Shown: positions 1,900-33,809, counted from the first letter of the stretch. The stretch: 64,000 bases of DNA from Bacteroidales bacterium (GCA_034002785.1 JAVEZX010000002.1:1526-65525), one strand, 5' to 3'. Notes: generated by a model from the sequence alone, not told the origin. A program made the numbers and translations.

Positions 1900-1912
1900 T
1901 CTGCTTTGCTGA

Positions 1913-3043: not shown

Positions 3044-3050
3044 GTGAGGG

Positions 3051-4352: not shown

Positions 4353-4377
4353 AGAATGCGCTTTGTACGATCTATAT

Positions 4378-4385
4378 CAAAAATA
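4378..4385 (-). promoter_or_regulatory. Candidate Bacteroidota -7 promoter box (TATTTTTG on the minus strand) for the GH5-GH26-GH130-epimerase operon
   Basis: The reverse complement of caaaaata matches the TAnnTTTG consensus. It lies 26 nt upstream of the GH5 ATG (4352). Confidence 0.35.
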
Positions 4386-4651
4386 AGAAATCACCCATTC
4401 GGTGATATAATATCATTCGTTTAAATAGTGATACTATAATGCCATTGTTAAACTTCAGATGGCATAATCTGAACTGCTGACCGGTACATTTTTGATCAAT
4501 AATGCACCCTTAATACGGGTATAAACATTAACCCAATATGCATACATCTGAACTATTGCATTTTGAAAAATATGGAACCCCCTGATTTGATCTATAGGAT
4601 TTTTGCTGTAACTTTATATCGCTGATCATCCGGAGTACAAGAAAGCGAGCA

Positions 4652-8064: not shown

Positions 8065-8079
8065 AACAGTTATATTTAG

Positions 8080-9816: not shown

Positions 9817-9845
9817 TTCTCTAAAATTTTAAAACAACACTATTC

Positions 9846-12701: not shown

Positions 12702-12704
12702 CTG

Positions 12705-15983: not shown

Positions 15984-16016
15984 ACTAAATTATAAGCTTC
16001 TCTTTTAAAAAATGCA

Positions 16017-16057
16017 AAGGGTATCTCAATTTAGTGATAAAATCCGAGATACCCCTT
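16017..16057 (-). terminator. Intra-locus hairpin plus T-run between the surface-protein genes and the enzyme genes (attenuator/terminator candidate)
   Basis: On the minus strand this reads AAGGGGTATCTC-(18-nt loop)-GAGATACCCTT, followed by TGCATTTTTT. It sits in the 109-nt gap between the stop at 16093 and the next ATG at 15983. Confidence 0.4.
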
Positions 16058-16092
16058 GCGCTGAATTAAATGGATAACCTAATCAATCTCCA

Positions 16093-18225: not shown

Positions 18226-18248
18226 TGCAATTCTTTTTTCAGTTGATA

Positions 18249-19478
18249 TTACTTCGGTACAACGCGTATGTTGTCTATGCATATGTGCGGGGTGCATTCC
18301 TTACCATCCACACCACCATGCCATACAAGGAAAGTAAGGCCGCGAATCATGTCAGCAGTGAGCTTGTCGGAGTGAACCGAGCCGTCAGGGCCGTAGTTGA
18401 ATTCTGACAGTGGGTATGAGACGGTTGTCCACCCGTTGGTCTTGTAGGTTCCGGTCTCCTTCCACGGGATCCAGAGACCTCTTGGCAAGGGGACATCAGC
18501 AATGTAGCTGTTTGCTCCCGTGATGGAGTATGGGGTGAAGATCATCTGCAGTGCACCTGACTCCCATGCTTCAACCACGTTAACTTCAAACTTGATCTCG
18601 CCGTCTTTCAGTTCACCGGTATATACCGGTACATCGGGCCTGCCGTTTGCCTGTGGCCAGTAATTGAAGCTGACGCCGTCCTCATTCCATACACTGCCTG
18701 CTTTAGCGGGCAGTGTGCCGGAAAAACGGACATAATTACCGGAAATGCCAGCAGGGTTGGAATTTCCTATCACTCCCGAACGCCATCCTCCTGCAGCGGT
18801 CAGATCATCAAAGTTGAGGATGATGTTCCTGTCATCGCGGAAGAAGAAGCGTGAACGGGTGGTACCGTAAAGCGACTTGACCTGTATCTGACCCGGACCT
18901 ACACCCGGAGGAACTGTCACATGAATCTCGTTTATTGTGAAGTTCACGATCGTTCCGGGTATGTTCCCCGGAAACAGTACAGTCAGCGGTGATGCAGGGT
19001 CATCAACGAAGTAGTTACCCCTGATTACAGCCGTACCACCGTCTTCAACATACTCGCACACCATCCTGTCAACCAGCGGAGCAGGAACGTCTACCCCGAA
19101 AGTATATTTCAGAGTATCCTTCTTGTTCATGTTGATAAGGTACAGGTAGTTGGTAACAGTGGCCGGGATAACCTCCGGCACGGAGACCAGGATGGATGTC
19201 GCAGTCACCAGGTTGGGATTCAGCGCAGCCCTCTGATCATTGAACCAGACCTCATCGACAAAACCCAGGTTTTTCCCTATGATGGCGATGTTGTCTCCCA
19301 TAAAGGCATGAGCCACCAGTGAGTCAGATTTGACAGGATCTGTCTTGCGGATGTAGAAGATCTCAGGCATCAGCATCTCTTCCTCATTGCCTTCGCATGC
19401 CTGGAATAACATTCCTGCAGCTCCCGTAACAAGCAGAAGCAGGAATGCCGATAATGTATTGTTGATTATCTTTTTCAT
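18249..19478 (-). CDS. Surface glycan-binding-type lipoprotein (2 IPT/TIG domains + C-terminal CBM-like domain)
   Basis: Lipobox (MLFQAC). IPT-like segments are present (IAIIGKNLGFVDEVWF; AVIRGNYF...VTVPPGVGPGQIQV). The C-terminal domain shares ISGNY and IDNIR motifs with the downstream paralogue. Confidence 0.75.
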   Translation of the reverse strand: MKKIINNTLSAFLLLLVTGAAGMLFQACEGNEEEMLMPEIFYIRKTDPVKSDSLVAHAFMGDNIAIIGKNLGFVDEVWFNDQRAALNPNLVTATSILVSVPEVIPATVTNYLYLINMNKKDTLKYTFGVDVPAPLVDRMVCEYVEDGGTAVIRGNYFVDDPASPLTVLFPGNIPGTIVNFTINEIHVTVPPGVGPGQIQVKSLYGTTRSRFFFRDDRNIILNFDDLTAAGGWRSGVIGNSNPAGISGNYVRFSGTLPAKAGSVWNEDGVSFNYWPQANGRPDVPVYTGELKDGEIKFEVNVVEAWESGALQMIFTPYSITGANSYIADVPLPRGLWIPWKETGTYKTNGWTTVSYPLSEFNYGPDGSVHSDKLTADMIRGLTFLVWHGGVDGKECTPHICIDNIRVVPK

Positions 19479-19483
19479 ATCAT

Positions 19484-21091
19484 CTATTTTGTGTAATAGT
19501 GTTCTGGTTCCTCATCAAGCAAGGGGTCCTGAAGCACCTCTGAGGCAGGTATCGGAAGGAACATCTTGTCCTCAGTAAAATCAGTTACACGGACCAGATT
19601 GCCTGGAATTGTTCCCCTGTTCTGAGCCTCGATGATCTGCTTTGCCCTGGCGAAGCCCTGGCGGGTAATATCAAACCAGTAATCGCCTTCAAAGGCAAAC
19701 TCCACGCGGCGTTCCTTCATTATGTCATCAATTGTGAGAACACTTTTTGTCGGCAGTCCGGCGCGCAGACGAACCTTGTTGAAGGCATCGAGAGCCGTTG
19801 CATCGGCGGTTGTCGCATCTGAGCCCAGGGTGGCTTCAGCATAGATAAGAAGAATATCCGCATAGCGAAGCATCATGAAATTGATGCCTGTATTCATGCC
19901 AATGACCTGTTCGCCGCCGTACTTCTGACCCGGACCGACAACATACTTGGCTATTGTCGACCTGGTGCCGTTGAGAGAGCCTCCCTGGTTGGCCGGCTGG
20001 ATTGTATCATACCTGTACCCGTTCTTCATGAACTCATTGTATGCCGCATCATTGACAGCGAAGGAGCCGTCAGCCTGTGGCAGCTTCTGGGGTACCCACT
20101 GTGGCATGGTCCATCCGTGCTCCATGATTGATCCTGCCCGCCTCTTGTCATTGGGTTCATAGGCAGCCCTGATATCCAGCGAGGGTCTGTAAAGCTCCCA
20201 CATCTGTGCCTCATCTGTCTGCAGGCTTCCGGGACCGCGGTCAGGATTAAGCTGGTTGCCTGAGCCCCATGGATTCATTGTAGGCTGATGCTGAACCGCA
20301 AACAGCGTTTCAATATTGTTGTTGTTGGCGCTCGAGTTGAACATTGCACGGTAATCGGGGAAGAGATCATACTGTTCTGACTCAATCACCTCCCATGCCT
20401 TGGCCTTTGCATTGGCATAGTCCTTATTATAGAGATAAAGCTTGGCCATCATCCCTTTTGCCGAGTATTTGGTTACCCTTCCCGGAACATCAGTCTCGGG
20501 AAGACCTGCTTCTGCAAGCTGAAGCTCCTCAAGGGCGAAGCGGAGAACATCCTCCTGGAAATAACGGGGGATGTTGAAATCGCCTGTAAGAGCTATTGAA
20601 CCCGGATCAGTTACGATGGGGGCATGACCCCATATGCGGGCAATGTAGAAATAGACCGTTCCCCTCAGGAAATGACACTCGGCAATTGCCGGATCAAGAA
20701 TCGAAGCGTCACCGCCGTCAGCCTTCTTCTGTTCGAAGGTGGCAATCAGTGCACTTGTCCACCCGTTAACCTTGTAAAAGGCTTTCCATGAGTCGGAAAG
20801 ACGCACCGAGGTGGCAGAGACAGTCATCTGCGAAAACGGAGTATCATCACCATTCCAGGTGTGCTCGTTGCCTGCCATGATCTCGCCAATGCAGTCCAGG
20901 GCACGGGCCTCATAGCCTGACCATGCCAGTCCTGAATAGATGGTGCTCGTCGCAGCCCTCACCTCGTCTGCAGTGTTGTAATAGTTGCTCACCGTGAGGC
21001 CGGAAAGTGACGGGCGCTCGATGAACGACTCGCTGCATGATGCAAGTGTTGCGGCCAGGATTGCAATAAAATATATAAATCTGTTTTTCAT
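19484..21091 (-). CDS. susD: SusD/RagB-family outer-membrane glycan-binding lipoprotein
   Basis: Lipobox (LASC). The length (535 aa) and TPR-like content are typical (YFLRGTVYFYIARIWG, ILLIYAEA, ERRVEFAFEGDYWFDITR). It lies directly downstream of susC. Confidence 0.9.
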   Translation of the reverse strand: MKNRFIYFIAILAATLASCSESFIERPSLSGLTVSNYYNTADEVRAATSTIYSGLAWSGYEARALDCIGEIMAGNEHTWNGDDTPFSQMTVSATSVRLSDSWKAFYKVNGWTSALIATFEQKKADGGDASILDPAIAECHFLRGTVYFYIARIWGHAPIVTDPGSIALTGDFNIPRYFQEDVLRFALEELQLAEAGLPETDVPGRVTKYSAKGMMAKLYLYNKDYANAKAKAWEVIESEQYDLFPDYRAMFNSSANNNNIETLFAVQHQPTMNPWGSGNQLNPDRGPGSLQTDEAQMWELYRPSLDIRAAYEPNDKRRAGSIMEHGWTMPQWVPQKLPQADGSFAVNDAAYNEFMKNGYRYDTIQPANQGGSLNGTRSTIAKYVVGPGQKYGGEQVIGMNTGINFMMLRYADILLIYAEATLGSDATTADATALDAFNKVRLRAGLPTKSVLTIDDIMKERRVEFAFEGDYWFDITRQGFARAKQIIEAQNRGTIPGNLVRVTDFTEDKMFLPIPASEVLQDPLLDEEPEHYYTK

Positions 21092-21109
21092 GATCTTGTC
21101 TTTTAGTCA

Positions 21110-24100
21110 TTAAAACTCAACACTCACACCGCCCATGAATGTGCGCGGGTTTGGATAGTGGCCTGCATCAACGTTCATAAGCCGGATGCTGTTGTTGTAT
21201 GCACCAACCTCAGGATCGTAACCGGAATAATTGGTGAAGGTATAGAGGTTCTGAACAGTAACGTAGAACCTCAGGCTGTTCATCTTCACCCTGTTGATCA
21301 GAGTTCCCGGGAGCCTGTAACCAAGAGTTATGTTTTGAATGCGGACAAAGGAACCATCTTCAACATAACGGTCTGACATAGCCGTGTTGTTGGTGTTTGT
21401 ATTGGTGAACCTTGGTAGCTCACCATCCCTGTTGGTTGCAGTATAGCGGTCCATGACAGCAGTCGACTGGTTGTAATAGACGTTGTTCATCCTCTCGAGC
21501 TGCCACTTCATGAAGTTGAAGACCTCGGCACCGTAACTCCCCTGCAGGAAGATAGAGAGATCGATGTTCCTGTACCGGAGATTGTTTGTGAAACCGAAGG
21601 TGAAGTCAGGTATCGGGCTCCCGATGAAGGTCAGATCCTTTGAGTCAATTATCTGGTCACTGTTCTGATCCTTGTACCTGACATCTCCGAGCCATGTCTC
21701 ATTCTCAGCCACTGCCGACCCAAACTGCGGGTATGAGGCTGCCAGCTCTGCCTCCGTGCGGAAGAGTCCGTCGGTCTCAAGGCCCCAGAATGTACCGACT
21801 GCATAGCCGGGCACCGTATGGGTGATCAGGTAGTTGTCATAGTAGAGCTTCCCGTCAATCGAGGAGGATTCGTTTATCAGCTTGTCAAGCACGTTCCTGT
21901 AGTGAGAGAAGATGACCGAGGTGTTCCACGAGAAGTTGGGCTTCACAATGTTACGTGTCGTAAGGCTGAGATCGATACCGGTGTTGGTCATCTGACCGAC
22001 ATTGCCTATAGGAGCCTTGAGGTCATTCCATGCGTCACCTATACCCAGCAGTGCGGGGCCGGTGCTGAAGAGAAGCATGTTCGAGGTTATCTTCTTATAG
22101 AGGTCAACCGTCAGGTCAATCCTTCCGTTGATGAACCCGAAGTCAATACCACCGTTGTATGTGATTACCGATTCCCATCCGAGATCAGGGTTGGCAATAC
22201 CTGCAATGAAGTTGGTCGATGCCGTTCCCACCTGGCCGAAGCCTGTCGGTCCGGGCCAGAAGTTGACGTTCGATGTATAAGGCGGGTTTGGTGCTCCGCC
22301 AGGCAGGTTCTGGTTACCTACGGCACCGGCGCCAAGCCTGATCTTCATGTAGTTCATCACATTGGCCCAGTTCGCGGCAAACTTTTCATTTGTCACCGTC
22401 CAGCCGACCGATGCCCCGGGGAAGAAACCCCATTTATTGTTGGGACCGAAGTTTGCGGATCCGTCACCTCTGTAGCTCAGTGATAATGAGTAGCGGTCAT
22501 CAAAGGTGTAATTCCCCCGGACGAAGTATGACTCCATCGCCCAGTCTCCCTTGCCACCGGTCAGGTCCCATGTAAGCTTGTCAGTGCCGCCTGCATTCAT
22601 GTCAAGGATATTGTTTTGCAGATCGACCTTCTTGCCGCCCATTTGCTCCCAGTATGAATACTGAGCCTCATGTCCGCCGGTGAATGCCAGCTTGTGCTTG
22701 CCAATAGTCTTGTTGTAGTTCAGGTAGTTCCTGACAGCATAATAATATGAGTTGTTGCGGTTGTCATAAAGCTGAGCCTGCAGCGACCGCGTGCCTATGT
22801 TTGCCTCATACTGAAAAGCAATGCTGTTTCGCATTCCGATCTGGTAAGAGAATTCGTTCCTGAGAGACAGCCCCTCCATGAAGATGATATCAGCATAGAT
22901 ATTACCGAATATCTGGCTCTGTACCGTCTTGTTGCCCCTGCTGCTGCTTGTTGCCACGGGGTTATCGGCAGTGTATGCATAGCCTCCAACCGTATAGTTC
23001 CCTGCCCAGGTCCCGTCAAGGTTCCTTACAGGGATGAGGGGGTTCTGAAGTGTTGACCACCATATTGTACTCTCTGCCGCATCGGCAAGTGTAACATTCT
23101 GGATGCTCCTTGTAATGTTCGAGCTTACCCCTGCCCTCAGCCAGCTCTTGACCTGGCTGTCAAGATTGAAGCGGGTGGAGTAACGCTTGAAGTCGGAACC
23201 GATAAGGATACCCTTCTGGTCAAAGTAGCCTGCGGAGAAGTAATAACTGGTGTTATCCTTGCCTCCTGATATGCCAAGCTGGTGATCCGTTGTGTATCCC
23301 TGGCGGAAGATAGCATCCTGCCAGTCGGTGCCTTCACCAAGCAGTGACGGGTCGGCAAACTCCTCGGTGGGAGTGTAACCCGGGCCGAGCTCTGCAATGA
23401 CCTCGTTCTGATACGCGGCAAACTCCCGGAGATTCATGACATCCAGGGTCCTGTAAACATCCTGTATCCCGTAGGAGGCATCATACGTGACCTTGCCGTC
23501 ACCAGCCTTCCCCTTCTTGGTAGTAATGAGAAGCACCCCGTTGGCAGCCTGTGATCCGTAAATAGCCTGTGCCGAGGCATCCTTGAGCACATCAATCGAT
23601 TCAATGTCATTGGGGTTCAGTGTCGCCAGGAAGCTGTTCTGCGTCTGTCCGTCCGAACCACCAAGGCCGTCATAGCCCGTATTTTCAACATTGTTGGAGG
23701 TGAAAGGAACACCGTCAATCACTATCAGCGGATCATTGCTGTTGATGGAGGTGATACCTCTTACCCTTACGGAGACTCCTCCTCCGGGCTGACCGCTGTT
23801 GTTCATTACCTGAAGGCCCGCAACCTTGCCCTGCAGGGCCTGGTCAATGCCTGTCACAACGAGATCCTTTATCTCCTCCGACTTCACGGAGGCAATGGCC
23901 GATGTTACTTCCGACCTTCTTATGGTGCCGTATCCTATCACAACAACAGCATCGACCTCCTCGGCCGCCATCGTCATCCTGATACTCATCGGTCCGTCCG
24001 TGATCGGCACCTCAATGATATCCATCCCTACGAACGTTACCACCAGGGTGGTGGCATCCGAAGGTACCTGAAACGAGAAATTCCCGTTCAGATCTGTAGC

Positions 24101-24268
24101 TGTTCCTATGGTCGTGCCCTTAACCACAACCGAGGCTCCGGGCAGGCCAGCATTGCTGTCATCCAGTACCCTTCCGGTAACAGTCCTCTGCTGCGCGAAG
24201 AGAACTGCAGATGACATTACAGCTGCCAGACAAATAAGAATAGTTTTTCTAAAGAGCTTGTTTTGCAT
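21110..24268 (-). CDS. susC: SusC/RagA-family TonB-dependent outer-membrane transporter
   Basis: 1052 aa. A signal peptide is followed directly by a carboxypeptidase-regulatory-like domain (VTGRVLDDSNAGLPGASVVVKGTTIGTATDLNGNFSF), so there is no STN signalling domain. It has a plug (IVIDGVP, GSQAANGVLLITTKKG) and a terminal beta-barrel ending in ...GGVSVEF. Confidence 0.95.
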   Translation of the reverse strand: MQNKLFRKTILICLAAVMSSAVLFAQQRTVTGRVLDDSNAGLPGASVVVKGTTIGTATDLNGNFSFQVPSDATTLVVTFVGMDIIEVPITDGPMSIRMTMAAEEVDAVVVIGYGTIRRSEVTSAIASVKSEEIKDLVVTGIDQALQGKVAGLQVMNNSGQPGGGVSVRVRGITSINSNDPLIVIDGVPFTSNNVENTGYDGLGGSDGQTQNSFLATLNPNDIESIDVLKDASAQAIYGSQAANGVLLITTKKGKAGDGKVTYDASYGIQDVYRTLDVMNLREFAAYQNEVIAELGPGYTPTEEFADPSLLGEGTDWQDAIFRQGYTTDHQLGISGGKDNTSYYFSAGYFDQKGILIGSDFKRYSTRFNLDSQVKSWLRAGVSSNITRSIQNVTLADAAESTIWWSTLQNPLIPVRNLDGTWAGNYTVGGYAYTADNPVATSSSRGNKTVQSQIFGNIYADIIFMEGLSLRNEFSYQIGMRNSIAFQYEANIGTRSLQAQLYDNRNNSYYYAVRNYLNYNKTIGKHKLAFTGGHEAQYSYWEQMGGKKVDLQNNILDMNAGGTDKLTWDLTGGKGDWAMESYFVRGNYTFDDRYSLSLSYRGDGSANFGPNNKWGFFPGASVGWTVTNEKFAANWANVMNYMKIRLGAGAVGNQNLPGGAPNPPYTSNVNFWPGPTGFGQVGTASTNFIAGIANPDLGWESVITYNGGIDFGFINGRIDLTVDLYKKITSNMLLFSTGPALLGIGDAWNDLKAPIGNVGQMTNTGIDLSLTTRNIVKPNFSWNTSVIFSHYRNVLDKLINESSSIDGKLYYDNYLITHTVPGYAVGTFWGLETDGLFRTEAELAASYPQFGSAVAENETWLGDVRYKDQNSDQIIDSKDLTFIGSPIPDFTFGFTNNLRYRNIDLSIFLQGSYGAEVFNFMKWQLERMNNVYYNQSTAVMDRYTATNRDGELPRFTNTNTNNTAMSDRYVEDGSFVRIQNITLGYRLPGTLINRVKMNSLRFYVTVQNLYTFTNYSGYDPEVGAYNNSIRLMNVDAGHYPNPRTFMGGVSVEF

Positions 24269-24567
24269 AGCTGTACAGTTTTTAGGTTTTTAAAGTTACA
24301 CCAACTTATCAGGGCGGCATTGATACTATTTTGTCTCATTATTGTAATAATTTGATTAGTACACCCTGGAAAATGTCAAAAACAGGGTCTCAAAGTGTAC
24401 CTTATACACATAGATAATATATATGTATACCGGTATCCCTTCTCACCTGCATGAAAGGACATTCAATCTTTTTTTTCTTTTGTGGTTGATAATAAAATAT
24501 ATTTGAGATACCTTTGAATTCTTACATTGTACACTAAGTCATTTTATCACTTACCTGGTATAATAAA

Positions 24568-25314
24568 ATGATATCTCACAAGATCGTTCCCAACATCTCA
24601 GTCGACTGCGTGATCTTTGGTTTCGACTTTGAAAAGCTGAATGTCCTGCTTGTCGAAAGAGAGATGAAAGACAAAAAAAACGGCGAGATACTGATTAAGG
24701 ACCACACCCTGGCCGGATACCATATCTTCGAGGATGAAGACCTTGACAGTGCAGCTGCCAGGATCCTGAAAGGACTTACCGGACTCGACAATATTTTCCT
24801 TGAACAGTTCGGCGCCTTCGGCCAGCTAGACCGCGTCTCATCACCAAAGGACAAGATGTGGCTCGATTATATCAACAAGGGATTTGCTGACCGCGTTGTC
24901 ACAGTGGGATACCTCGCTCTGATAGACAATACAAAGGTTACCCTCACGCTGAAGGACAGGAATGTGGCATGGTTTCCCGTATCGGCAGTGCAGGAGATGG
25001 AGATGGCATTTGACCACAGATACCTCTTCCACACCGCCCTGGAGGCTCTCCAGCGCAAGGTGAAGGTGGAACCAATCGTATTTGAACTGCTGCCTGATTA
25101 CTTTACGATCTCACAGCTGCAGAAAGTTTACGAGGCAGTGCTTGGAACATCGTTCGACAAGCGTAACTTCAGGAAAAAAGTGGCACAGATGCACTACGTC
25201 ATCCCGTTGCGGAAGAAACAGCAGGGCGTGCCGCACAAACCTGCACAGTTCTATCTCTTCAGCCGGGAGGTGTACGAAAAAACCAGAAAAGGACGCATCT
25301 CTTTCATTATCTGA
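24568..25314 (+). CDS. NrtR/AraR-like transcriptional regulator (degenerate Nudix sensor domain + C-terminal winged helix)
   Basis: The N-terminus ISVDCVIFGFDFEKLNVLLVER is typical of the family. The Nudix-box region reads SAAARILKGLTGL, where a catalytic box would read AAxRELxEETGL, so the catalytic Glu residues are replaced. The C-terminal part reads FTISQLQKVYEAVLGTSFDKRNFRKK. Confidence 0.8.
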   Translation: MISHKIVPNISVDCVIFGFDFEKLNVLLVEREMKDKKNGEILIKDHTLAGYHIFEDEDLDSAAARILKGLTGLDNIFLEQFGAFGQLDRVSSPKDKMWLDYINKGFADRVVTVGYLALIDNTKVTLTLKDRNVAWFPVSAVQEMEMAFDHRYLFHTALEALQRKVKVEPIVFELLPDYFTISQLQKVYEAVLGTSFDKRNFRKKVAQMHYVIPLRKKQQGVPHKPAQFYLFSREVYEKTRKGRISFII

Positions 25315-25342
25315 TATATAACCCATTTAACCAACCATAACC

Positions 25343-27217
25343 ATGAATGTACACTTCATTGACCTGGGCATAGTCATCCTGTACCTTGTGGCCACCATCT
25401 TCATAGGCAACTGGGTGTCAAAGAGAGCTTCGCGAAACATCCAGTCTTACTTCCTCGGGGGCAACACTCTTCCCTGGTACTTCCTTGGCATCTCTAACGC
25501 CTCCGGGATGTTTGATATCGCCGGAACCATGCTGCTCGTCTACTGGCTATCCGTTTACGGCATGAAGAGCCTCTGGATACCCTGGCTCTGGCCTGTCTTC
25601 AACCAGATATTCCTGATGGTCTACCTCTCCGCCTGGCTCAGACGATCCAACGTAATGACAGGCGCAGAGTGGATCAAGACCCGGTTCGGCGACGGGAGGG
25701 CCTCGAACCTGTCCCATGTCATAGTGGTTGTCTTCGCCCTGGTAAGCGTGATAGGCTTCCTCTCCTATGGCTTCAAGGGTATCGGCAAATTCGTGGCGGC
25801 CTTCCTTCCTCCTCTCGTGTCAAATCCCGACTACCTGCTGGCACACCCGCAGATAAATGTCAACCTCTATGCATTGATCCTGATGGCCATAACCACCTTC
25901 TACGTCGTGAAGGGCGGTATGTTCAGCGTGGTGATCACTGAAGTCATCCAGTACGGAATACTCACAATAGCATCAATTGCCGTAGGTATCATCGCCATAA
26001 AACAGGTCTCCCCCGATGCACTCAACTCGGTCATACCTGAAGGATGGAAGAGCCTCTGGTTCGGGAGGACCACGGGTCTCGACTGGCACGCCATCTCCTC
26101 TGTGGGTTCGCCGAAGCTGCACTCGTTCAACGACTGGATAAAAACTGACGGTTATGAGCTCTTCGGCCTCTTCTTCGTTATGATGCTCTTCAAGGGTATC
26201 CTTGTCTCTGCGGCAGGCCCGGCGCCCAACTACGACATGCAGCGCGTCCTTGCCACCAAAAACCCGAAGGAGGCCTCGAAGATGAGCTCGCTGGTGAGCG
26301 TGGTACTCAACCCGACACGTTACTTTATGGTTGCCGGTCTCACAATCCTCGCCCTGGTGAACTTTGACAAGCTATATACCGGCTCACTGACCAATCCCGA
26401 CTTCGAGAGCATCCTGCCCGAAGTGCTGGCGACTTATGTTCCCGTGGGGCTCCTCGGATTCCTTCTCGCCGGTCTTATCGCAGCCTTCATGAGCAACTTC
26501 GCAGCTACGGTGAACGCCGCCCCCGCCTACCTGGTCAATGACATCTACAAGAGATACATCAATCCCAACGCCAGCGAAAAGACATATGTGCGGATGAGCT
26601 ATGCCGCCTCACTCCTTATTGTGGTTGTTGGAATAGTTGTCGGATTCCTGGTGACTTCAATAAATGACGTGGTGCTCTGGATCACTGCAGCCCTCTGGGG
26701 TGGCTACACCGCCCCCAACTTCCTGAAGTGGTACTGGTGGCGATTCAACGGTTACGGTTACTTCTGGGGCATGCTCTCAGGCATCATAGCCGCACTCATC
26801 CTGCCGGCACTGAATATAGGCCTGCTGCAGAACTGGCCGCTGACAGAGAACTTCAGTATGAACGCATTCCCCGTCATCTTCCTCTTCTCACTCATCGGCA
26901 GTATCCTCGGTTCACTCCTTACAAAGAGGGAGGATGACGCTACCCTGAAAAAATTCTACAGGCAGGTCCGCCCCTGGGGATTCTGGAAACCGGTTGAGAG
27001 AATGGTTCTCGCCGAAGATCCTTCATTTAAAGCCAACCGCGACTTCTGGAGGGATATGTTCAACATTGCTGTGGGAATCGTTTGGCAGATATCACTTATG
27101 GCATTCCCTGTGTTCCTGGTGATGAGGGAATGGACCCAGTTCTATGTTGCCGTGGCCGTGATGATCGTTACCACAATCATCCTGAAATTCAGCTGGTGGG
27201 ATAAACTTAAAGACTGA
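25343..27217 (+). CDS. Sodium:solute symporter (SSS) family sugar transporter
   Basis: 624 aa and highly hydrophobic, with about 13-14 predicted TM segments. The N-terminus is typical of the SSS family (LGIVILYLVATIFIGNWVSKRASRNIQSYFLGGNTLPWY). Confidence 0.85.
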   Translation: MNVHFIDLGIVILYLVATIFIGNWVSKRASRNIQSYFLGGNTLPWYFLGISNASGMFDIAGTMLLVYWLSVYGMKSLWIPWLWPVFNQIFLMVYLSAWLRRSNVMTGAEWIKTRFGDGRASNLSHVIVVVFALVSVIGFLSYGFKGIGKFVAAFLPPLVSNPDYLLAHPQINVNLYALILMAITTFYVVKGGMFSVVITEVIQYGILTIASIAVGIIAIKQVSPDALNSVIPEGWKSLWFGRTTGLDWHAISSVGSPKLHSFNDWIKTDGYELFGLFFVMMLFKGILVSAAGPAPNYDMQRVLATKNPKEASKMSSLVSVVLNPTRYFMVAGLTILALVNFDKLYTGSLTNPDFESILPEVLATYVPVGLLGFLLAGLIAAFMSNFAATVNAAPAYLVNDIYKRYINPNASEKTYVRMSYAASLLIVVVGIVVGFLVTSINDVVLWITAALWGGYTAPNFLKWYWWRFNGYGYFWGMLSGIIAALILPALNIGLLQNWPLTENFSMNAFPVIFLFSLIGSILGSLLTKREDDATLKKFYRQVRPWGFWKPVERMVLAEDPSFKANRDFWRDMFNIAVGIVWQISLMAFPVFLVMREWTQFYVAVAVMIVTTIILKFSWWDKLKD

Positions 27218-27225
27218 CTTGAAAC

Positions 27226-29658
27226 ATGAAATTCGGATATTTTGATGACGCTGCAAGAGAGTATGTCATCACACAGTACAAAACGCCATGGCCCTGGATC
27301 AATTACCTGGGCAACAAGGACTTCTTCTCGATAATCTCGAACACCGCAGGAGGCTACAGCTTCTACCGCGATGCCCGGCTCCGTAGGATAACCCGGTACA
27401 GGTACAACAACGTGCCGATGGACGACGGCGGCAAGTACTTTTATATCAATGATAACGGTTCTGTCTGGTCCCCGGGATGGAAACCGGTGAAGACAGATGT
27501 CGAAGACTACTCCTGCCGTCACGGCATGGGCTACACGATGATCGGCTCAGCCAGGGACAGTCTGAGGGCGGACATACTCTACTTCGTTCCGCTGGATGAC
27601 ACCTGCGAGGTGCAGCGCGTCATACTGCGCAATACAGGTACAATGCCGAAGCATATCAAGCTCTTCTCGTTTACCGAGTGGTGCTTCTGGAATGCGCATG
27701 ATGACCAGACCAACTTCCAGCGTAACTTCTCAACCGGTGAGGTGGAGGTGGAGGAGGGTGTCATCTATCACAAGACAGAGTACCGTGAGCGCCGTAACCA
27801 CTATGCATTCCATTCGGTCAACAGCCCTGTGGCTGGCTTCGACACCGACCGTGAGACGTTCCTGGGAATCTATAACGGCTTTGACCGTCCCGAGACTGTC
27901 TTCTCCGGCCGGCCACGAAACAGCATAGCCCACGGATGGTCACCAGTGGCATCGCACTGCCTGGAGACCATCCTGGAGCCGGGCGAGGTGAAGGAATACA
28001 TCTTCGTCCTTGGATATATCGAGAATCCTGACAACGAAAAATTCATCGCTCCGAAGGTGATAAACAAAGTCAGGGCAAAGGCAATGATCGGCAGGTATGA
28101 CACCTCTGAGAAGGTCGATATCGCCTTCGCGAAGCTGAAGGAATACTGGGACAGCCAGCTTTCGGTTATCAGCCTGAACCACCCGGACCCACGCCTCGAG
28201 CGTATGGTCAACACCTGGAACCCCTACCAGTGCATGGCTACATACAACTTCTCACGGAGTACCTCCTATTTCGAATCCGGCATTGGCCGCGGGATGGGGT
28301 TCCGCGACTCTAACCAGGACCTTGTGGGATATGTTCAGATGATCGGCCAGCAATCGCGCGACAGGATCATTGACATTGCCTCAACGCAGTTGAACGACGG
28401 CAGCGCATACCACCAGTACCAGCCTCTGACAAAGAGGGGCAACGCCGAGATAGGCGGCAATTTCAACGATGACCCGCTGTGGCTCATCTTCGGTGTGGCT
28501 GCATACCTCAAGGAGACGGGCGACTGGTCAATACTTGACGAGACGGTGCCGTTCAACAACAACCCGGATGATGCGGCAAGCCTCTTCGAGCACCTGCACC
28601 GTTCCTTCATGCACGTGGTGAACCACCTCGGACCTCACGGCCTGCCGCTGATAGGGCGCGCTGACTGGAACGACTGTCTTAACCTGAACTGCTTCTCATC
28701 AAACCCCGATGAGAGCTTCCAGACAACTGAGAACCAGAAGGGAGGCCAGGCGGAATCACTGTTCATTGCCGCCATGTTCGTGCTCTACGGTGCTGATTTT
28801 GTTACAATTGCCCGTCGCAGGGGCGAGACACAGATGGCAGATGAGGCCACAGATCATATTGATGCTATGGTCCGGGCTGTCAATGAGCACGGCTGGGACG
28901 GCGACTGGTTCCTGCGGGCATACGATTTTTACGGACGCAAGGTTGGCAGTCGTGAAAACGAGGAGGGTAAGATCTTCATTGAATCACAGGGTATGTGTAT
29001 CATGGCTGGTATAGGGCTCGACGACGGCAGGGCGCTGAAGGCGCTGACATCAGTCAATAAGCACCTGGCATGCGAGCACGGCATTGTTCTCAACAACCCC
29101 GCCTTCACGAAGTACTACCTCCACCTGGGTGAAATATCAAGCTACCCTGAAGGATATAAGGAAAACGCCGGCATCTTCTGCCATAACAACCCGTGGATAA
29201 TCATAGCCGAGACACTTGCCGGCAACGGACACAGGGCCTTTGACTACTACAGCAGGATAACACCCTCGTACCTCGAGGATATTAGTGATCTTCACAAGAC
29301 GGAGCCATATGTCTACTCACAGATGATTGCAGGCAAGGATGCCTTTCGTCCCGGTGAGGCAAAGAACAGCTGGCTGACCGGTACGGCCTCATGGTGCTAT
29401 TATGCGATCACACAGTATATCCTGGGCATCAGACCCGATTATGACGGGCTGCTGGTTGATCCGTGCATACCGCCCGACTGGGGAGGATTTACTGTCAGGC
29501 GTAAATTCAGGGGAGCGGTTTACAACATCGAGATCATCAACCCGGAGCACAAGTCCAAGGGTGTCTGGGAGATCACGGTTGACGGAAAGAAAGTCGATTC
29601 GTGCCTACTCCCGGTCTTCGCCGCGGGGACTGAACATGAAGTCAAAATAATAATGTAA
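27226..29658 (+). CDS. GH94 disaccharide phosphorylase (cellobiose-phosphorylase-like)
   Basis: 810 aa with no signal peptide. The hallmark N-terminus is [29 protein letters not shown]. The catalytic-region motif is [12 protein letters not shown]. Also present are [12 protein letters not shown] and SWLTGTASW. The size fits cellobiose/chitobiose phosphorylases rather than cellodextrin phosphorylases. Confidence 0.85.
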
Positions 29659-29662
29659 TATC

Positions 29663-31402
29663 ATGAAAATAAAGAGACTGTTTTTGATCACTGGCGCAGT
29701 AATGATGCTTGCATGCGCAGGTTGCGGCAGCAAGACGCTGATAACGGCCAGGCTTGCAGCCCCCGCTGATACTGATATCATCCTGGTGAACCAGACCGGA
29801 TATCTTCCCGGAGCCGAAAAGGTGGCCCTTCTGAGGACAGACACTGACATTTTCGAGTTGATCGATGCTGTCACCGGGAAAAATGTATTCGGCGCTGAAC
29901 CCGGCGCACCGGTTTTCTGGGAGATGTCGGGCGACACAGTCCGTGCAGCTGATTTTTCAGCTTTTACAACACCCGGCACCTACAGGGTCTGCCTGACAGG
30001 AACCGATATCTGCTCCGCACCCTTCCGCATCGGGGAGGACGTCTACGGCGAGATCACTGCAGCGGCAGTACGCTCTTATTATCTAAACCGCTCCGGCATT
30101 GAGATAACGGAAGTCCATGGCGGTAAATGGGCGCGCCCGGCAGGCCACCCTGATACGGCAGTGATAGTGCATTCCTCAGCCGCCTCAGCCAGACGGCCGG
30201 CAGGTACTGTGATCTCCAGCCCTGGCGGATGGTATGATGCAGGCGACTACAACAAGTACATAGTCAACAGCAGCATCACCAATTATACCCTGCTTCTGTT
30301 CTACCAGATGTTCCCGGAGTATTGCCGGTCGCTTGACCTTAACATCCCTGAAAGCGGTAATGATATTCCTGACCTGGTTGATGAGCTGCTCTGGAACCTG
30401 AGATGGTACCTGACAATGCAGGACCCGGCTGACGGTGGGGTGTACCACAAGCTGACGAACCTGTACTTCTGCGGGTTTGTGATGCCTCTTGAGGCCACCG
30501 ATCCGAGATATGTGGTGATGAAGAGCACCGCCGCCACCCTTGACTTTGCTGCCTTCACTGCCATGGCACACCGCATATTTGCCAGTGACCCGTCAGAGGA
30601 GCTCAGGGCACTGGCCGCCACCTGTCTTGAGGCATCCGGCAAAGCGATGAAATGGGCTGAGGCTCATCCCGATGTGATTTACAAACAGCCTGCGGATGTG
30701 AGCACCGGCGCCTACGGCGATGACAACCTCTCCGACGAGCTCTTCTGGGCTATGGCAGAGAGGGCGCTGGCCACGGGAACTGTTCCGGGGCCGGGCTTCC
30801 TCGACGGTGTGGCAGCAGTAACCCCGACGTGGAACCAGTCGGCAACGCTGGGTCTCATCTCCCTTGCACTCAGCAGTGATGAAGCATTTGCTACAATTCG
30901 CGATGAAGCTGCCGGGATGCTTGTTTCGTATGCTGACGCCCTGCTTGAGAAATCCGGGATGTGCCCCTACCGCATCAGCCTCGACAGGTTTGACTGGGGC
31001 AGCACCTCAGATGTTGCCAACCAGGCCATGATCAAGATCGTTGCAATGAAACTATCGGGCAGCGACAGGTTCCTGCCATCCGTTCAGGCCGACCTGAACT
31101 GGCTGCTTGGAACGAATCCTACAGGGTACTGCTTCGTCACAGGGTTCGGGACCCTTACACCGATGTTTATCCATCACCGTCCATCAGGCGCTGACGGCGT
31201 ACCTGAGCCGGTGCCGGGGTTCCTTGTTGGCGGTCCGAACACAGTTGTAATGAATGACTGTCAACCGCCGGTTGAAAGGTCAACATTTCCTGCGAAGTCA
31301 TACTCTGATGTAGAGTGCAGCTACTCCACAAATGAGATCGCAATAAACTGGAACGCCCCGCTGGTGTTCCTGCTTGGCGCGATGGACAGCATGCGGCAAT
31401 AA
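29663..31402 (+). CDS. GH9 endo-beta-1,4-glucanase with N-terminal Ig-like (CelD_N-type) domain, lipoprotein
   Basis: Lipobox (LACAGC). GH9 motifs are present: GGWYDAGDYNKY, GGVYHKL, IHHRPSGADG, LVGGPN and YSTNEIAINWNAPLVF. Confidence 0.9.
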   Translation: MKIKRLFLITGAVMMLACAGCGSKTLITARLAAPADTDIILVNQTGYLPGAEKVALLRTDTDIFELIDAVTGKNVFGAEPGAPVFWEMSGDTVRAADFSAFTTPGTYRVCLTGTDICSAPFRIGEDVYGEITAAAVRSYYLNRSGIEITEVHGGKWARPAGHPDTAVIVHSSAASARRPAGTVISSPGGWYDAGDYNKYIVNSSITNYTLLLFYQMFPEYCRSLDLNIPESGNDIPDLVDELLWNLRWYLTMQDPADGGVYHKLTNLYFCGFVMPLEATDPRYVVMKSTAATLDFAAFTAMAHRIFASDPSEELRALAATCLEASGKAMKWAEAHPDVIYKQPADVSTGAYGDDNLSDELFWAMAERALATGTVPGPGFLDGVAAVTPTWNQSATLGLISLALSSDEAFATIRDEAAGMLVSYADALLEKSGMCPYRISLDRFDWGSTSDVANQAMIKIVAMKLSGSDRFLPSVQADLNWLLGTNPTGYCFVTGFGTLTPMFIHHRPSGADGVPEPVPGFLVGGPNTVVMNDCQPPVERSTFPAKSYSDVECSYSTNEIAINWNAPLVFLLGAMDSMRQ

Positions 31403-31496
31403 CCTCTGCCGGAGGAGGACATGCTGCCCAACATTTTCTGATTCCCTTCAGAACCGGATCCAAATGCATAACTTAGTGGATCAAAGGAATCATAAG

Positions 31497-32732
31497 ATGA
31501 GCACAAGAAGAACCTTTATCAAACAGGGCGGACTGACTGCAGGAGGTCTTGCAACGGCAACAGCACTGGGAGCAGCCGTGTTGCCGGCGGGGGCCAGTTA
31601 CTCCGGACCCGATGCAGCCGTGTTGCCGGCGGGCGGAAACATTTACCCCGGACCTGGTGCAGCCGATGGCATTAAGATCAGCAAGATGTTTGTTGAACCC
31701 CTCAGCATCGAGATGGATCCTTTCCCGATTGCACTGGGGGTGATGACACATCTTGACAATGCCTTTGTCAGGATCGTCCTCGAGAACGGGGTTGAAGGAT
31801 ATGGTGAGGCCGCTCCGATAATGACAATCAGCGGCGAGAATCAGCAGACAATTCTCGGAACTATAAACAGCTGCCGGGAATTCATTGTAGGTCAGGATAT
31901 AAACAACTACAGGGCAATCTCATACACGCTGAAAAGTGCATTCTGGGCACAAGCGACAGCCCGGTGCGCCATCGAGATGGCTCTGCTTGATGCATACACA
32001 AAAACCCTGAAGATCCCCTTCAGCCGTTTTCTTGGGGGAACGGAAACAAGGGTCGAGACCGATTACACAATCGCTATTGTGCCTGCCGACCAGGCGAAGA
32101 AGGAAGCTATCCATCTTGCAGCTGAAGGATACAGGGTGATAAAGACAAAGGTGGGTACCAGTCTGAAAGAGGATGTTGACAGGGTTCTGGCAATAAGGGA
32201 CGGCGCCCCTGACTGCGGAATACTCATTGATGCCAACCAGGGTTATTCGCCGAAAACGGCTCTCCGTTTCATCAATGAAGTGGTCGGTCATGGCATTTAC
32301 CCGGTGATGTTTGAGCAGCCTGTACACAAGAATGACCTTGCCGGGATGAAGTATGTACGTGACAATACCGAGATCCTCGTAGGTGCGGACGAGTCGGTCT
32401 TCACACGTGCTGATGCCATCAACATTGTACGGACCGGTTGTGCTGATGCAATCAACATCAAGCTGATGAAGTCATGCATAATTGAGGCGCTGGATATAGC
32501 CGCCATCGCACGCAGCGCCAACCTGAAGCTCATGATCGGCTGTATGGTTGAGACCAGCCTGGCGCTGGGGTGTGCGGTTCATTTTGCTGCCGGTGTGGGA
32601 GGGTTTGAATTCGTTGATCTCGACCCGTCGTTTGATATCTCGGAGTGTCCGGTCAGCGGCGGACCTGTTTACAAGGCCCCATTCTGGACCATTGGCCCGG
32701 AACCGGGGCTGGGGTTTGCATCCAGAAAATAG
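31497..32732 (+). CDS. Enolase-superfamily (MLE subgroup, dipeptide-epimerase-like) protein with a twin-arginine (Tat) signal peptide
   Basis: I chose the start at MSTRRTFIKQGGLTAGGLATATALGA (Tat motif S/T-R-R-x-F-[IL]-K) rather than the track's 31374, which overlaps the GH9 3' end. Catalytic scaffold: VIKTKVG (KxK), LIDANQGY, MFEQPV, LVGADES, INIKLMK and FVDLDPSF (DxD). Confidence 0.75.
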   Translation: MSTRRTFIKQGGLTAGGLATATALGAAVLPAGASYSGPDAAVLPAGGNIYPGPGAADGIKISKMFVEPLSIEMDPFPIALGVMTHLDNAFVRIVLENGVEGYGEAAPIMTISGENQQTILGTINSCREFIVGQDINNYRAISYTLKSAFWAQATARCAIEMALLDAYTKTLKIPFSRFLGGTETRVETDYTIAIVPADQAKKEAIHLAAEGYRVIKTKVGTSLKEDVDRVLAIRDGAPDCGILIDANQGYSPKTALRFINEVVGHGIYPVMFEQPVHKNDLAGMKYVRDNTEILVGADESVFTRADAINIVRTGCADAINIKLMKSCIIEALDIAAIARSANLKLMIGCMVETSLALGCAVHFAAGVGGFEFVDLDPSFDISECPVSGGPVYKAPFWTIGPEPGLGFASRK

Positions 32733-32746
32733 AGGGCCGACCGTAA

Positions 32747-32769
32747 GAAATTGCCCGGTGGGCAATTTC
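32747..32769. terminator. Perfect 9-bp stem hairpin downstream of the enolase-family gene (no U-run; weak terminator candidate)
   Basis: GAAATTGCC-cggtg-GGCAATTTC, starting 15 nt after the stop codon at 32730-32732. Confidence 0.3.
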
Positions 32770-32796
32770 AGGGAGGAGCCAGGTTGCAGGGGAGGC

Positions 32797-32852
32797 AGCA
32801 GTCGCCAGTCTTCTGTCAGCAGTCTAAAGTCGGCAGTCTCCAGTCGGCAGTC
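32797..32852. repeat. Four tandem copies of a 14-nt unit (consensus t..AGTCgGCAGTC)
   Basis: The units are agcagtcgccagtc, ttctgtcagcagtc, taaagtcggcagtc and tccagtcggcagtc. They are contiguous and lie in the convergent intergenic region. Confidence 0.7.
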
Positions 32853-32914
32853 ACAGCTGACCGCAAGATTGCAGAACTGCATAACGGAGCGTAGAGACTG
32901 CACCAAATCCAAAA

Positions 32915-32935
32915 TCGCAATTCGCAATTCGCAAA
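32915..32935. repeat. Three tandem copies of the heptamer TCGCAA(T/A)
   Basis: tcgcaat tcgcaat tcgcaaa, ending 3 nt before the stop codon (32939-32941) of the minus-strand regulator gene. Confidence 0.7.
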
Positions 32936-32938
32936 TCC

Positions 32939-33235
32939 TCAAGTCCCGGGTCTGAGATAATCCCCCAGCGCTGCCACATACTCCGCAAACTTCTGTCGCC
33001 CCAGCCCGGTGATTGCACACATCGTCTGAGGGTAACTCTCGCCGAAGCTCTTCTTCACCGTGATGTAACCCGCATCCTTAAGCTTGCCTATTTGAACACT
33101 GAGATTGCCCGCTGTCGCTTCGGTCTTCTCCTTCAGATAGCTGAAACCGGCGCTGTCAACACTGATGAGTACTGACATTATCGCCAGCCTGAGCTGCGAA
33201 TGCAGCAGCGGATCAAGCTCCCTGAACGGTGTCAT
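32939..33235 (-). CDS. Winged-helix transcriptional regulator (HTH_34-type)
   Basis: 98 aa. LDPLLHSQLRLAIMSVLISVDSAGFSYLKEKTEATAGNLSVQIGKLKDAGYITVKKSF...TGLGRQKFAEYVAAL matches the small wHTH family pattern. Its start overlaps the upstream membrane-protein gene by 23 nt. Confidence 0.8.
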   Translation of the reverse strand: MTPFRELDPLLHSQLRLAIMSVLISVDSAGFSYLKEKTEATAGNLSVQIGKLKDAGYITVKKSFGESYPQTMCAITGLGRQKFAEYVAALGDYLRPGT

Positions 33236-33809
33236 GGCTGCCCCTTTTTCTTAGAAGATAACCCGGAACAAGATACCCGATAACCATGGCCACCGGCATT
33301 GCCAGCCCCGAGACGGTCTCACCGCCGAAATGTGCCACCAGGGCAAGTAACCAGAAGGATCCGGCACCCCACATGAGGGGCCTGAAACTTAGCACAACCC
33401 CGGAGATTAACAGCGGCATGGCAGCTAACAGCAACATGTATTTGCTTATGCTGCCGGATTCCATCGGATAGACAATAAAGAATATTACCGATGAGACCAG
33501 AAACGCTATCCAGGTCCATAAATGAACTGCCGTCCCATAGGTAAAAACCTTCTCCCTCTTTCCTTTGACAAACCCGTAGATCAACGATACAAATACCCCC
33601 GGGATGACAAAGAGCCAGACATACCACACATTGGTCCAGTCTGTCAGCTTCCATAAAAGAAATTCTGACAGGCTGCAGGCAAAAATCAGCCACCCCCACA
33701 GGAGCAGATGAAAACTCGCCTGAGCGATACTCACCCTCGTCTTGTTAATCATTTCCGTGATGACCCTGAGGCTCTCCTCCCCTGTCATCAATTTTTCTTC
33801 ATTTTCCAT
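33213..33809 (-). CDS. Integral membrane protein of unknown function (about 5 TM segments), co-transcribed with the wHTH regulator
   Basis: 198 aa. An amphipathic N-terminus is followed by hydrophobic segments (FHLLLWGWLIFACSL, VWYVWLFVIPGVFVSLIYGF, LWTWIAFLVSSVIFFIV, MLLLAAMPLLISGVVL, FWLLALVAHF...). I recognise no family motif. Confidence 0.6.
   Translation of the reverse strand: MENEEKLMTGEESLRVITEMINKTRVSIAQASFHLLLWGWLIFACSLSEFLLWKLTDWTNVWYVWLFVIPGVFVSLIYGFVKGKREKVFTYGTAVHLWTWIAFLVSSVIFFIVYPMESGSISKYMLLLAAMPLLISGVVLSFRPLMWGAGSFWLLALVAHFGGETVSGLAMPVAMVIGYLVPGYLLRKRGSHDTVQGA

Follow-up and report, generated by a model that had tools for sequence, protein, structure and literature searches.

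Which signal switches on an operon for the uptake and phosphorolysis of cellobiose when the first gene of that operon encodes a protein that resembles a Nudix hydrolase? This question is raised by a 64,000-nt stretch of DNA from a Bacteroidales bacterium (the 64-kb window, on which all coordinates are counted), where the gene for a 248-aa protein, here called REG, precedes genes encoding a sodium:solute symporter (SSS), a glycoside hydrolase family 94 (GH94) phosphorylase and a GH9 glucanase (Table 1). An earlier interpretation, made from the DNA alone and referred to here as the sequence-only reading, had taken REG for a degenerate-Nudix regulator of the NrtR/AraR type and had proposed a beta-1,4 disaccharide or a derived sugar phosphate as its ligand; every element of that interpretation that could be checked held. 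We propose that REG acts as a repressor of the AraR type on an operon for cellobiose uptake and phosphorolysis, probably also on the divergent polysaccharide utilization locus (PUL), and that cellobiose releases it from DNA; we put the probability of this reading as a whole at roughly 0.7. That REG acts as an AraR-type, sugar-responsive regulator of this operon through the candidate operator GTGTACCTTATACAC is very likely; for cellobiose or a short cello-oligosaccharide as the effector we would give even odds.

The enzymes of the operon indicate the pathway. Gaps of 28 nt between REG and SSS, 8 nt between SSS and GH94 and 4 nt between GH94 and GH9 separate the four genes in the open reading frame (ORF) map, which reproduces exactly the ORFs and spacings reported in the sequence-only reading; no intrinsic-terminator-like site was found in a scan of these three short gaps. 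The GH94 protein matches the cellobiose phosphorylase of Clostridium thermocellum (3qde) from end to end with 1288 bits, against 460 bits for the chitobiose, 157 for the cellobionic-acid and about 87 for the cellodextrin type, and is by this comparison a cytoplasmic cellobiose phosphorylase. The SSS protein (Pfam SSF, 96 bits) is the predicted inner-membrane importer of the GH94 substrate. The GH9 protein, whose N-terminus MKIKRLFLITGAVMMLACAGC resembles a lipoprotein signal, has BoGH9A from the xyloglucan locus of Bacteroides ovatus as its closest solved relative (6dht, 420 bits). A Vibrio-like chitobiose module was considered for the GH94 and GH9 pair and rejected on the phosphorylase scores above and the BoGH9A-like character of the GH9 protein.

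REG itself joins a Nudix-like domain to a domain of the winged helix-turn-helix (wHTH) type. Pfam recovers NrtR_WHD (PF21906, 87 bits, residues 171-231), AraR_C (PF19368, 41 bits) and NUDIX (PF00293, 26 bits against a cut-off of 21, hence weak but above threshold), so that the profile search supports the NrtR/AraR architecture first suggested from the DNA. The Nudix box reads G50-Y-H-I-F-E-D-E57 ... R65-I-L-K-G-L-T-G72-L. Relative to the signature GX5EX7REUXEEXGU it has kept R, the first E and, at the end, G and U, and the three catalytic glutamates of REUXEE are replaced by I66, G69 and L70 (R65-I-L-K-G-L), as the earlier description of a degenerate box (SAAARILKGLTGL) had it. Across 51 orthologues these positions are hydrophobic, G/D/E and hydrophobic, respectively, two of the three being always hydrophobic. 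A Nudix signature impaired in this way points to a ligand sensor and not to a hydrolase.

The best solved relative of REG is BtAraR (BT0354), the L-arabinose-responsive repressor of Bacteroides thetaiotaomicron (PDB 5bs6, 5dd4, 5ddg, 5deq; Chang et al., 2015, PMC4666351). Full-length alignments were made with 5bs6 and with 3gz5, a structure of NrtR from Shewanella oneidensis (SoNrtR). The match to BtAraR has an E value of 1.6e-37, with 36% identity over 233 residues, and that to SoNrtR is far weaker (6.9e-13). A search with Foldseek, based on an AlphaFold2 (AF2) model of REG, likewise places BtAraR at the top (E 3.5e-14, TM 0.61-0.69) and SoNrtR and NadQ far behind. The model derives from a shallow alignment of 51 sequences, reaches a mean confidence (pLDDT) of 63.7 and resolves the Nudix domain poorly; the comparison with a structure model called for at the outset thus yielded the fold, with AraR first, and not a pocket geometry. 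On these matches REG has the domain architecture of the NrtR family in the broad sense and is neither an equivalog of the ADP-ribose-sensing NrtR nor an orthologue of AraR.

A different view would hold REG to be a canonical NrtR, responsive to ADP-ribose or NAD, or a working Nudix enzyme that is beside sugar genes by coincidence. It could draw on the NUDIX match above cut-off and on public annotations of REG's relatives, in which the labels 'NUDIX hydrolase', 'MutT' and '8-oxo-dGTP diphosphatase' occur. A match, though a weak one, also comes from NCBIfam's equivalog model of the ADP-ribose NrtR (NtrR, NF050029), at 104 bits against a cut-off of 400. The loss of the REUXEE glutamates to I, G and L contradicts this view, as does the distance to SoNrtR, whose ADP-ribose contacts R98 and K76 are A107 and L70 in REG; we regard it as essentially excluded.

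In order to compare REG with AraR residue by residue, the roles assigned in BtAraR (PMC4666351) were mapped onto the alignment with 5bs6. The recognition helix D197-K-R-N-F-R-K203 (DKRNFRK) is identical to D178-K184 of BtAraR, and the DNA contacts made there by D178, K179, R180, N181, R183 and K184 correspond to the invariant residues D197, K198, R199, N200, R202 and K203. The wing contacts K204 and R205 correspond to H223 and K224, which are invariant, yet unlike AraR. REG thus combines AraR-type recognition residues and a GTGT-containing operator with a different wing.

The candidate operator GTGTACCTTATACAC is a perfect palindrome within the region shared by the two divergent genes, upstream of both start codons at distances of 127 nt (susC) and 159 nt (regulator). 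It is the sole match to GTGTA-N5-TACAC with at most one mismatch in the 64 kb; with two mismatches the same window holds 13 matches against 15.7 expected, which is chance level. BtAraR operators validated by electrophoretic mobility shift assay and crystal structure carry the same core (GTGTATTTGATACAC, GTGTTACTTTTACAC and GTGTAAAAAAGACAC; PMC4666351), and this shared core fits the identical recognition helix. The site was exposed by cross-species comparison of upstream regions, a generic repeat finder having overlooked the 5-N5-5 palindrome. In 29 of 35 GH94-linked loci the 400 nt that precede the regulator contain a match of at least 9/10 positions, as compared to 1.1% of control 400-nt windows, and an operator precedes the regulator in 32 of 39 clade loci. 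Over 81 loci, 64 matches fall in 152 kb of intergenic DNA and 30 in 1168 kb of coding DNA, nearly all of them directly upstream of the regulator. A symmetrised matrix of 39 sites has the consensus cWWA-GTGTA-W5-TACAC-TWWg.

Does the association of regulator and phosphorylase extend beyond this one genome? A genome scan retrieved 80 related loci, with regulators 43-89% identical to the window protein, whose neighbours were identified by tblastn and clustering; the regulators were placed in a neighbour-joining tree rooted on a BtAraR fragment and computed without support values. In this tree the GH94-linked regulators form one clade; of its 36 members whose downstream DNA is long enough, 35 show the order regulator, transporter, GH94, locus L012 being the exception. 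Since many species repeat the same gene order, it exceeds what chance would produce. The sequence-only reading had been ready to yield if orthologues were never linked to GH94 or symporter genes; linkage to GH94 at 35 of 36 informative loci, in several orders of Bacteroidota, shows the opposite. Carriers belong to the Bacteroidales, Marinilabiliales (Labilibacter, Geofilum, Thermophagus, Saccharicrinis, Alkalitalea, Ancylomarina), Prolixibacteraceae, Salinivirgaceae, Lentimicrobiaceae, Flavobacteriaceae (Croceivirga) and Cytophagales. The transporter between the two genes is an SSS protein in 18 loci and a GPH-type protein (MFS_2) in 16, a swap that is best described as non-orthologous replacement around a constant GH94; GH94 is often followed by GH9 (20 loci) or by GH3. 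Among the 80 loci, no GH94 gene was found near the regulators outside the clade, which are at most 50% identical to the window protein.

Clade members share the signature T47 (36/38), H52 (38/38) and G114 (37/38), and REG of the window carries all three residues next to a transporter and a cellobiose phosphorylase. No arabinose catabolic genes (araMPRDAB) lie between regulator and GH94 in the clade loci. Nor do NAD-metabolism genes adjoin the regulator, which at 35 of 36 loci is next to genes for sugar transport and for glycoside hydrolases or phosphorylases; together with the conserved GH94 linkage this is a further argument against a canonical NrtR.

The regulatory region was also examined in a footprint alignment of the window and six close loci (7 in all), in which the operator is invariant within diverged flanks. 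The promoter of the regulator operon was assigned with the -7 consensus of Bacteroidetes, which we take to be TAnnTTTG; a box of this type (TACCTTTG) with an invariant TTTG precedes the regulator, and just downstream of it lies a putative operator half-site (TACACTAAG), invariant as well. In L007-L009 a full operator stands at the corresponding distance from the -7 box, and the half-site matches its right half together with the flank; the left half of the proximal site is degenerate in the window lineage. In distant orthologues the -7 box is directly followed by the full palindrome, a placement that repressor sites usually have. Further invariant elements are the leader adjoining the susC ATG and a 40-bp block (TTGATACTATTTTGTCTCATTATTGTAATAATTTGATTAG), which all seven loci keep whether the divergent gene is susC or GH31. 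The block matches neither the operator nor any Rfam family; it may represent a second promoter or bind a regulator other than REG. An Rfam scan of 23500-33500 found no riboswitch or leader RNA, and a scan for sigma-70 promoters and terminators, with a tool that does not model Bacteroidetes promoters, gave matches at or below shuffle expectation.

By analogy with BtAraR, from which we infer repression rather than activation, the following mechanism can be proposed. A REG dimer would bind GTGTA-N5-TACAC in the divergent region through its winged-helix domains, possibly together with the half-site at the proximal promoter. Bound REG would repress its own operon, that is, the regulator, the SSS importer, the cellobiose phosphorylase and the GH9 endoglucanase, and probably the divergent SusC/D hemicellulose PUL too. 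Extracellular and periplasmic breakdown of hemicelluloses with a beta-1,4-glucan backbone (xyloglucan, glucomannan) would yield cellobiose, which the symporter would import. Binding of cellobiose in the catalytically dead Nudix domain would then turn the wHTH domains away from the DNA, which is the effect of L-arabinose on BtAraR. Release would switch on uptake (SSS), phosphorolysis (GH94) and backbone cleavage (GH9), and probably the divergent xyloglucan/mannan PUL, and GH94 would convert cellobiose to glucose-1-phosphate and glucose.

Among the candidate effectors cellobiose is the most likely, because it is the substrate of the one enzyme that is constant beside the regulator, as well as the presumed cargo of an interchangeable transporter, and because BtAraR likewise senses a transported substrate. 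The ligand pocket shows which features of AraR persist. The triad that forms hydrogen bonds with arabinose in BtAraR (R34, R86, H131) is represented by R31, R89 and H150, invariant in every clade examined, and F129 by the conserved F148. Of the whole AraR pocket set (R34, R86, H131, Y5, F36, G47, G48, F49, V92, F129), the triad, G47, V92 and F129 are kept; G47-G48-F49 has become G50-Y51-H52, with two positions changed, and the position of F36 falls within an insertion. AraR F49 contacts C5 of arabinose (PMC4666351), and a histidine in its place would be compatible with the C6 hydroxyl of a hexose or with a further sugar. H52 is also found in the clade linked to mannitol dehydrogenase and PfkB kinase genes.

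Several points weigh against the reading of REG as a cellobiose-released repressor. In the window lineage about 100 nt separate the perfect site from the conserved -7 box downstream of it, so that the full operator does not overlap the promoter; only the half-site does, which leaves the geometry of repression unclear in this lineage. The pocket could be compared by sequence alignment only, because the Nudix domain of the AF2 model is mediocre. The two insertions of REG relative to AraR, one of 6 aa that follows R31 and one of about 15 aa that follows R89 (with an invariant W98), are common to the alpha-glucan and mannitol/fructokinase sister clades and hence not a cellobiose-specific adaptation. 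SSS transporters usually carry monosaccharides. The sugar effectors assigned in this branch of the family, too, are monosaccharides (arabinose confirmed, xylose predicted), which raises the prior for glucose.

The same repressor on the same operator could indeed respond to a product of the pathway, D-glucose or alpha-glucose-1-phosphate, and this is the main rival for the effector. The full retention of the monosaccharide triad of AraR would suit it, and a sister clade linked to GH65 maltose phosphorylase and GH13 shares glucose as a product with GH94; a derived sugar phosphate had also been allowed in the sequence-only reading. Glucose would be a poor specific signal for a single disaccharide pathway, though, and would render the alpha-glucan-linked and GH94-linked clades redundant, yet their pocket positions 47, 51, 52 and 114 differ. 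In BtAraR, moreover, side chains occupy the phosphate subsites of NrtR (PMC4666351), and REG keeps the corresponding L70. Local repressors of sugar genes, AraR among them, as a rule respond to the substrate that is transported, and we consider a product effector unlikely.

A second alternative for the effector arises from the divergent genes. The PUL transcribed away from REG encodes a GH31 protein that matches the alpha-xylosidase BoGH31A with 1058 bits, an SGBP-B-like protein with a xyloglucan-binding-type domain and a GH26 protein that matches the endo-mannanase 3zm8. Such a gene set, with its GH26 mannanases and the BoGH9A-like GH9, would be consistent with another hemicellulose oligosaccharide as ligand, such as a glucomannan disaccharide (Glc-beta-1,4-Man, Man-beta-1,4-Glc), isoprimeverose or a fragment of xyloglucan; in L003, L004 and L006 the same regulatory region faces GH31-AXE-GH2 directly. 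Against this, xyloglucan/mannan PUL genes accompany the regulator only in the closest relatives of the window, and the constant partner throughout the clade is cellobiose phosphorylase, with GH9 or GH3. Because that partner is a bona fide cellobiose phosphorylase, cellobiose is to be preferred over a gluco-manno disaccharide. The mannan set of GH130, GH26 and GH5-like genes, moreover, has an AraC-type regulator of its own and no operator, so an effector of this kind appears quite improbable.

With cellobiose as the preferred effector, control of the PUL can be considered separately. The sequence-only reading had suggested that REG may also control susC, and such control is plausible because an AraR-type operator lies within the shared divergent region. 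In independent lineages with a divergent susC (L013, L024, L031) this region holds two operator sites; no separate operator above background was found before the same-strand SusC genes of Marinilabiliales loci. No hybrid two-component system (HTCS), SusR protein or pair of extracytoplasmic function (ECF) sigma and anti-sigma factors was found at the locus. The divergent PUL, susC included, is thus a plausible part of the REG regulon and the probable second target of the operator. Within this PUL, a GH26 mannanase with CBM35 and a sorting domain of the type IX secretion system (T9SS) is embedded in a SusC/D locus that is otherwise xyloglucan-like (BoGH31A-like, BoGH9A-like, SGBP-B XBD, GH2, esterase); the gene content is that of a mixed xyloglucan/mannan locus, with T9SS secretion and Sus-type uptake side by side.

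How far does this system depart from those already described? REG resembles BtAraR in its two-domain architecture, inactive Nudix box, DKRNFRK helix, R/R/H triad and F148 for F129, in the operator core GTGTA-N5-TACAC with an A/T-rich spacer, and in a gene that shares an operon with an SSS transporter and catabolic enzymes, with a predicted reach into SusC/D PULs. It differs in its limited identity (36%), its separate clade, Y51-H52 for G48-F49, the two insertions and the wing H223-K224, in being the first gene of its operon, and in a linked pathway of cellobiose phosphorolysis instead of arabinose catabolism. A second sugar-linked branch of the NrtR family in Bacteroidota, likewise defined by comparative genomics, is XylR of Bacteroides (BT0791), which is predicted to control xylose utilization and clusters with xylRBAE (PMC3878776, PMC4666351). 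Unlike XylR with its xylose genes, the GH94 clade clusters with a transporter and GH94; among the neighbours that were identified, these partners, with GH9 or GH3, argue by their context against membership of the XylR group.

The NrtR family was founded on ADP-ribose-responsive repressors of NAD metabolism (PMC2330246), among them those of Synechocystis and S. oneidensis (SO1979, PDB 3gz5/3gz6). NrtR proper shares with REG the Nudix-like effector domain and the same wHTH, and is a dimeric repressor released by a ligand in the Nudix cleft; REG is distant from it (E 6.9e-13), does not conserve the contacts to the phosphates and adenine of ADP-ribose, and has another regulon and another operator motif.

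Cytoplasmic repressors of cellulase, transporter and cellobiose-splitting genes that are released by cellobiose are familiar from Actinobacteria as CelR and CebR of the LacI family. The logic predicted for REG is the same, with an unrelated fold and DNA-binding domain, and the likeness is one of functional analogy only.

A full-text search of the literature for ties between NrtR- or Nudix-type regulators and cellobiose, GH94 or beta-glucan PULs returned nothing beyond AraR and XylR, and papers on GH94 genes of Bacteroidota make no mention of such a regulator. The GH94-linked clade is thus apparently a new subfamily, not described before, within a known regulator family, with which it shares the fold, the way DNA is recognised and the logic; the predicted ligand and regulon are new. 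The extension of the ligand range expected in the sequence-only reading is smaller than implied, because AraR (arabinose, experimental) and XylR (xylose, predicted) already spanned a range 'from NAD to pentoses' (PMC3878776, PMC4666351) and because further alpha-glucan and mannitol dehydrogenase/PfkB clades came to light.

Regulation of polysaccharide use in Bacteroidota has mostly been ascribed to hybrid two-component systems, SusR-like proteins and ECF/anti-sigma pairs, and the cytoplasmic sugar repressors of NrtR type assigned so far respond to arabinose (characterised) or xylose (predicted). If the ligand prediction is true, the Nudix-fold sensor is extended from pentoses to a hexose disaccharide. 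REG could then, in a tentative view to which we give somewhat less than even chances, be the first disaccharide-sensing transcription factor with a Nudix fold, a cellobiose-responsive local repressor of a SusC/D PUL devoid of HTCS, SusR and ECF regulators and gated by a cytoplasmic end-product in place of a periplasmic oligosaccharide, and one of several unrecognised sugar-specific clades that form a major family in Bacteroidota. The signature T47, H52 and G114 together with the operator offers a tool to correct the widespread mis-annotation of such proteins as Nudix enzymes. The module also provides a handle on how Bacteroidota of anaerobic digesters and sediments turn on the energy-saving phosphorolytic route for beta-glucan backbones, and possibly a compact cellobiose-responsive switch for Bacteroidota genetics.

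Table 1. Features of the 64-kb window, in order of position.
Feature	Position	Strand	Remarks
Mannan module	GH130 712-1899; GH26 1913-3043; weak GH5-like protein 3051-4352	- (GH5-like)	
AraC-family regulator	4652-5533		Divergent from mannan module
Divergent hemicellulose PUL	5635-24268	-	SusC, SusD, SGBP-B-like, TIG/XBD protein, GH26-CBM35-T9SS mannanase, GH31, acetyl esterase, GH2 (Pfam)
GH26 endo-mannanase	12705-15983	-	1092 aa; N-terminal CBM35, C-terminal T9SS sorting domain
susC	21110-24268	-	Divergent from REG
Shared divergent region	24269-24567		299 bp
Conserved block TTGATACTATTTTGTCTCATTATTGTAATAATTTGATTAG	24320-24359		40 bp
Candidate operator GTGTACCTTATACAC	24395-24409		GTGTA-CCTTA-TACAC
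-7 box TACCTTTG	24509-24516	+	Bacteroidetes type, regulator operon
Putative operator half-site TACACTAAG	24530-24538	+	
Regulator REG	24568-25314	+	Degenerate Nudix effector domain, NrtR/AraR-type wHTH
SSS symporter	25343-27217	+	624 aa
GH94 cellobiose phosphorylase	27226-29658	+	Pfam GH94 catalytic and supersandwich domains
GH9 endo-beta-1,4-glucanase lipoprotein	29663-31402	+	BoGH9A-like; Pfam GH9 and CelD_N
Enolase-superfamily protein	31497-32732	+	L-Ala-D/L-Glu epimerase type; Tat-like signal MSTRRTFIKQGG
ORF	33213-33809	-	198 aa

The regulators outside the GH94 clade adjoin GH65/GH13/GH31/beta-phosphoglucomutase genes, mannitol dehydrogenase/PfkB/ABC transporter genes or other SusC/D pairs, and many of their loci carry the same operator core. 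One sister clade (L043, L049, L056, L057, L060, L061, L063, L064, L066, L067, L072, L073, L077; 43-48% identity) comes from metagenome-assembled genomes mostly of Flavobacteriales/Flavobacteriia (several Lishizhenia, Cryomorphaceae, Crocinitomix) and a few of Bacteroidia. Its regulators, near position 10001 in most loci, are divergent to genes for GH13 amylases, GH31, GH65 maltose phosphorylase, beta-phosphoglucomutase, an MFS transporter and a BadF-type kinase; many have the GTGTA-N5-TACAC core upstream. Judged by these neighbours, the clade looks like an undescribed alpha-glucan or maltose regulator of NrtR/AraR type. A second sister clade (L045, L050, L053, L054, L059, L074), with a histidine at the AraR F49 position as in the GH94 clade, adjoins genes for a PfkB fructokinase, mannitol 2-dehydrogenase, an ABC sugar permease, a xylose-isomerase-like TIM-barrel protein and a LamB-type porin, which suggests a mannitol/fructose-linked regulator.

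In Marinilabiliaceae, a second AraR-like paralogue (L020 6121-6732, L027 7651-8313, L029 5479-6081, L034 8623-9234) sits two to three genes upstream of the GH94-linked regulator. It is 33-34% identical to the window protein, has the GGF pocket motif and lacks the insertions. Two regulators with the same recognition helix side by side raise the question of how cross-talk at operators is avoided. In L019, whose regulator is at 10001, short direct repeats (CTTCGATCTTCCATCTT...) run through the DNA between the preceding gene and the regulator, about 90-175 nt upstream of the latter; L028, a close relative, lacks them.

The mannan module and its AraC-family regulator lie beyond the far end of the PUL. 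The 433-aa GH5-like ORF shows a sub-threshold match to GH5 only. No operator was found in the window scan near the GH26/GH130/AraC part of the locus, and since positions 712-5533 lack a GTGTA-N5-TACAC site, this module is probably regulated independently of the Nudix-type regulator.

Downstream of GH9, the true start of the enolase-superfamily ORF is the ATG at 31497, 95 nt past GH9, and the gene is kept at this place only in the closest relatives (L001, L002, L006). A role in linking GH94 to cellobionate or gluconate metabolism was considered and rejected: the protein is of epimerase type, and GH94 is far nearer to cellobiose than to cellobionic-acid phosphorylase. The gene stands outside the sugar pathway, and it places an exported-type dipeptide epimerase beside a glycan locus. 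Further downstream of the operon, the 198-aa ORF, which has no or marginal matches in Pfam and NCBIfam, recurs in L001, L003 and L004.

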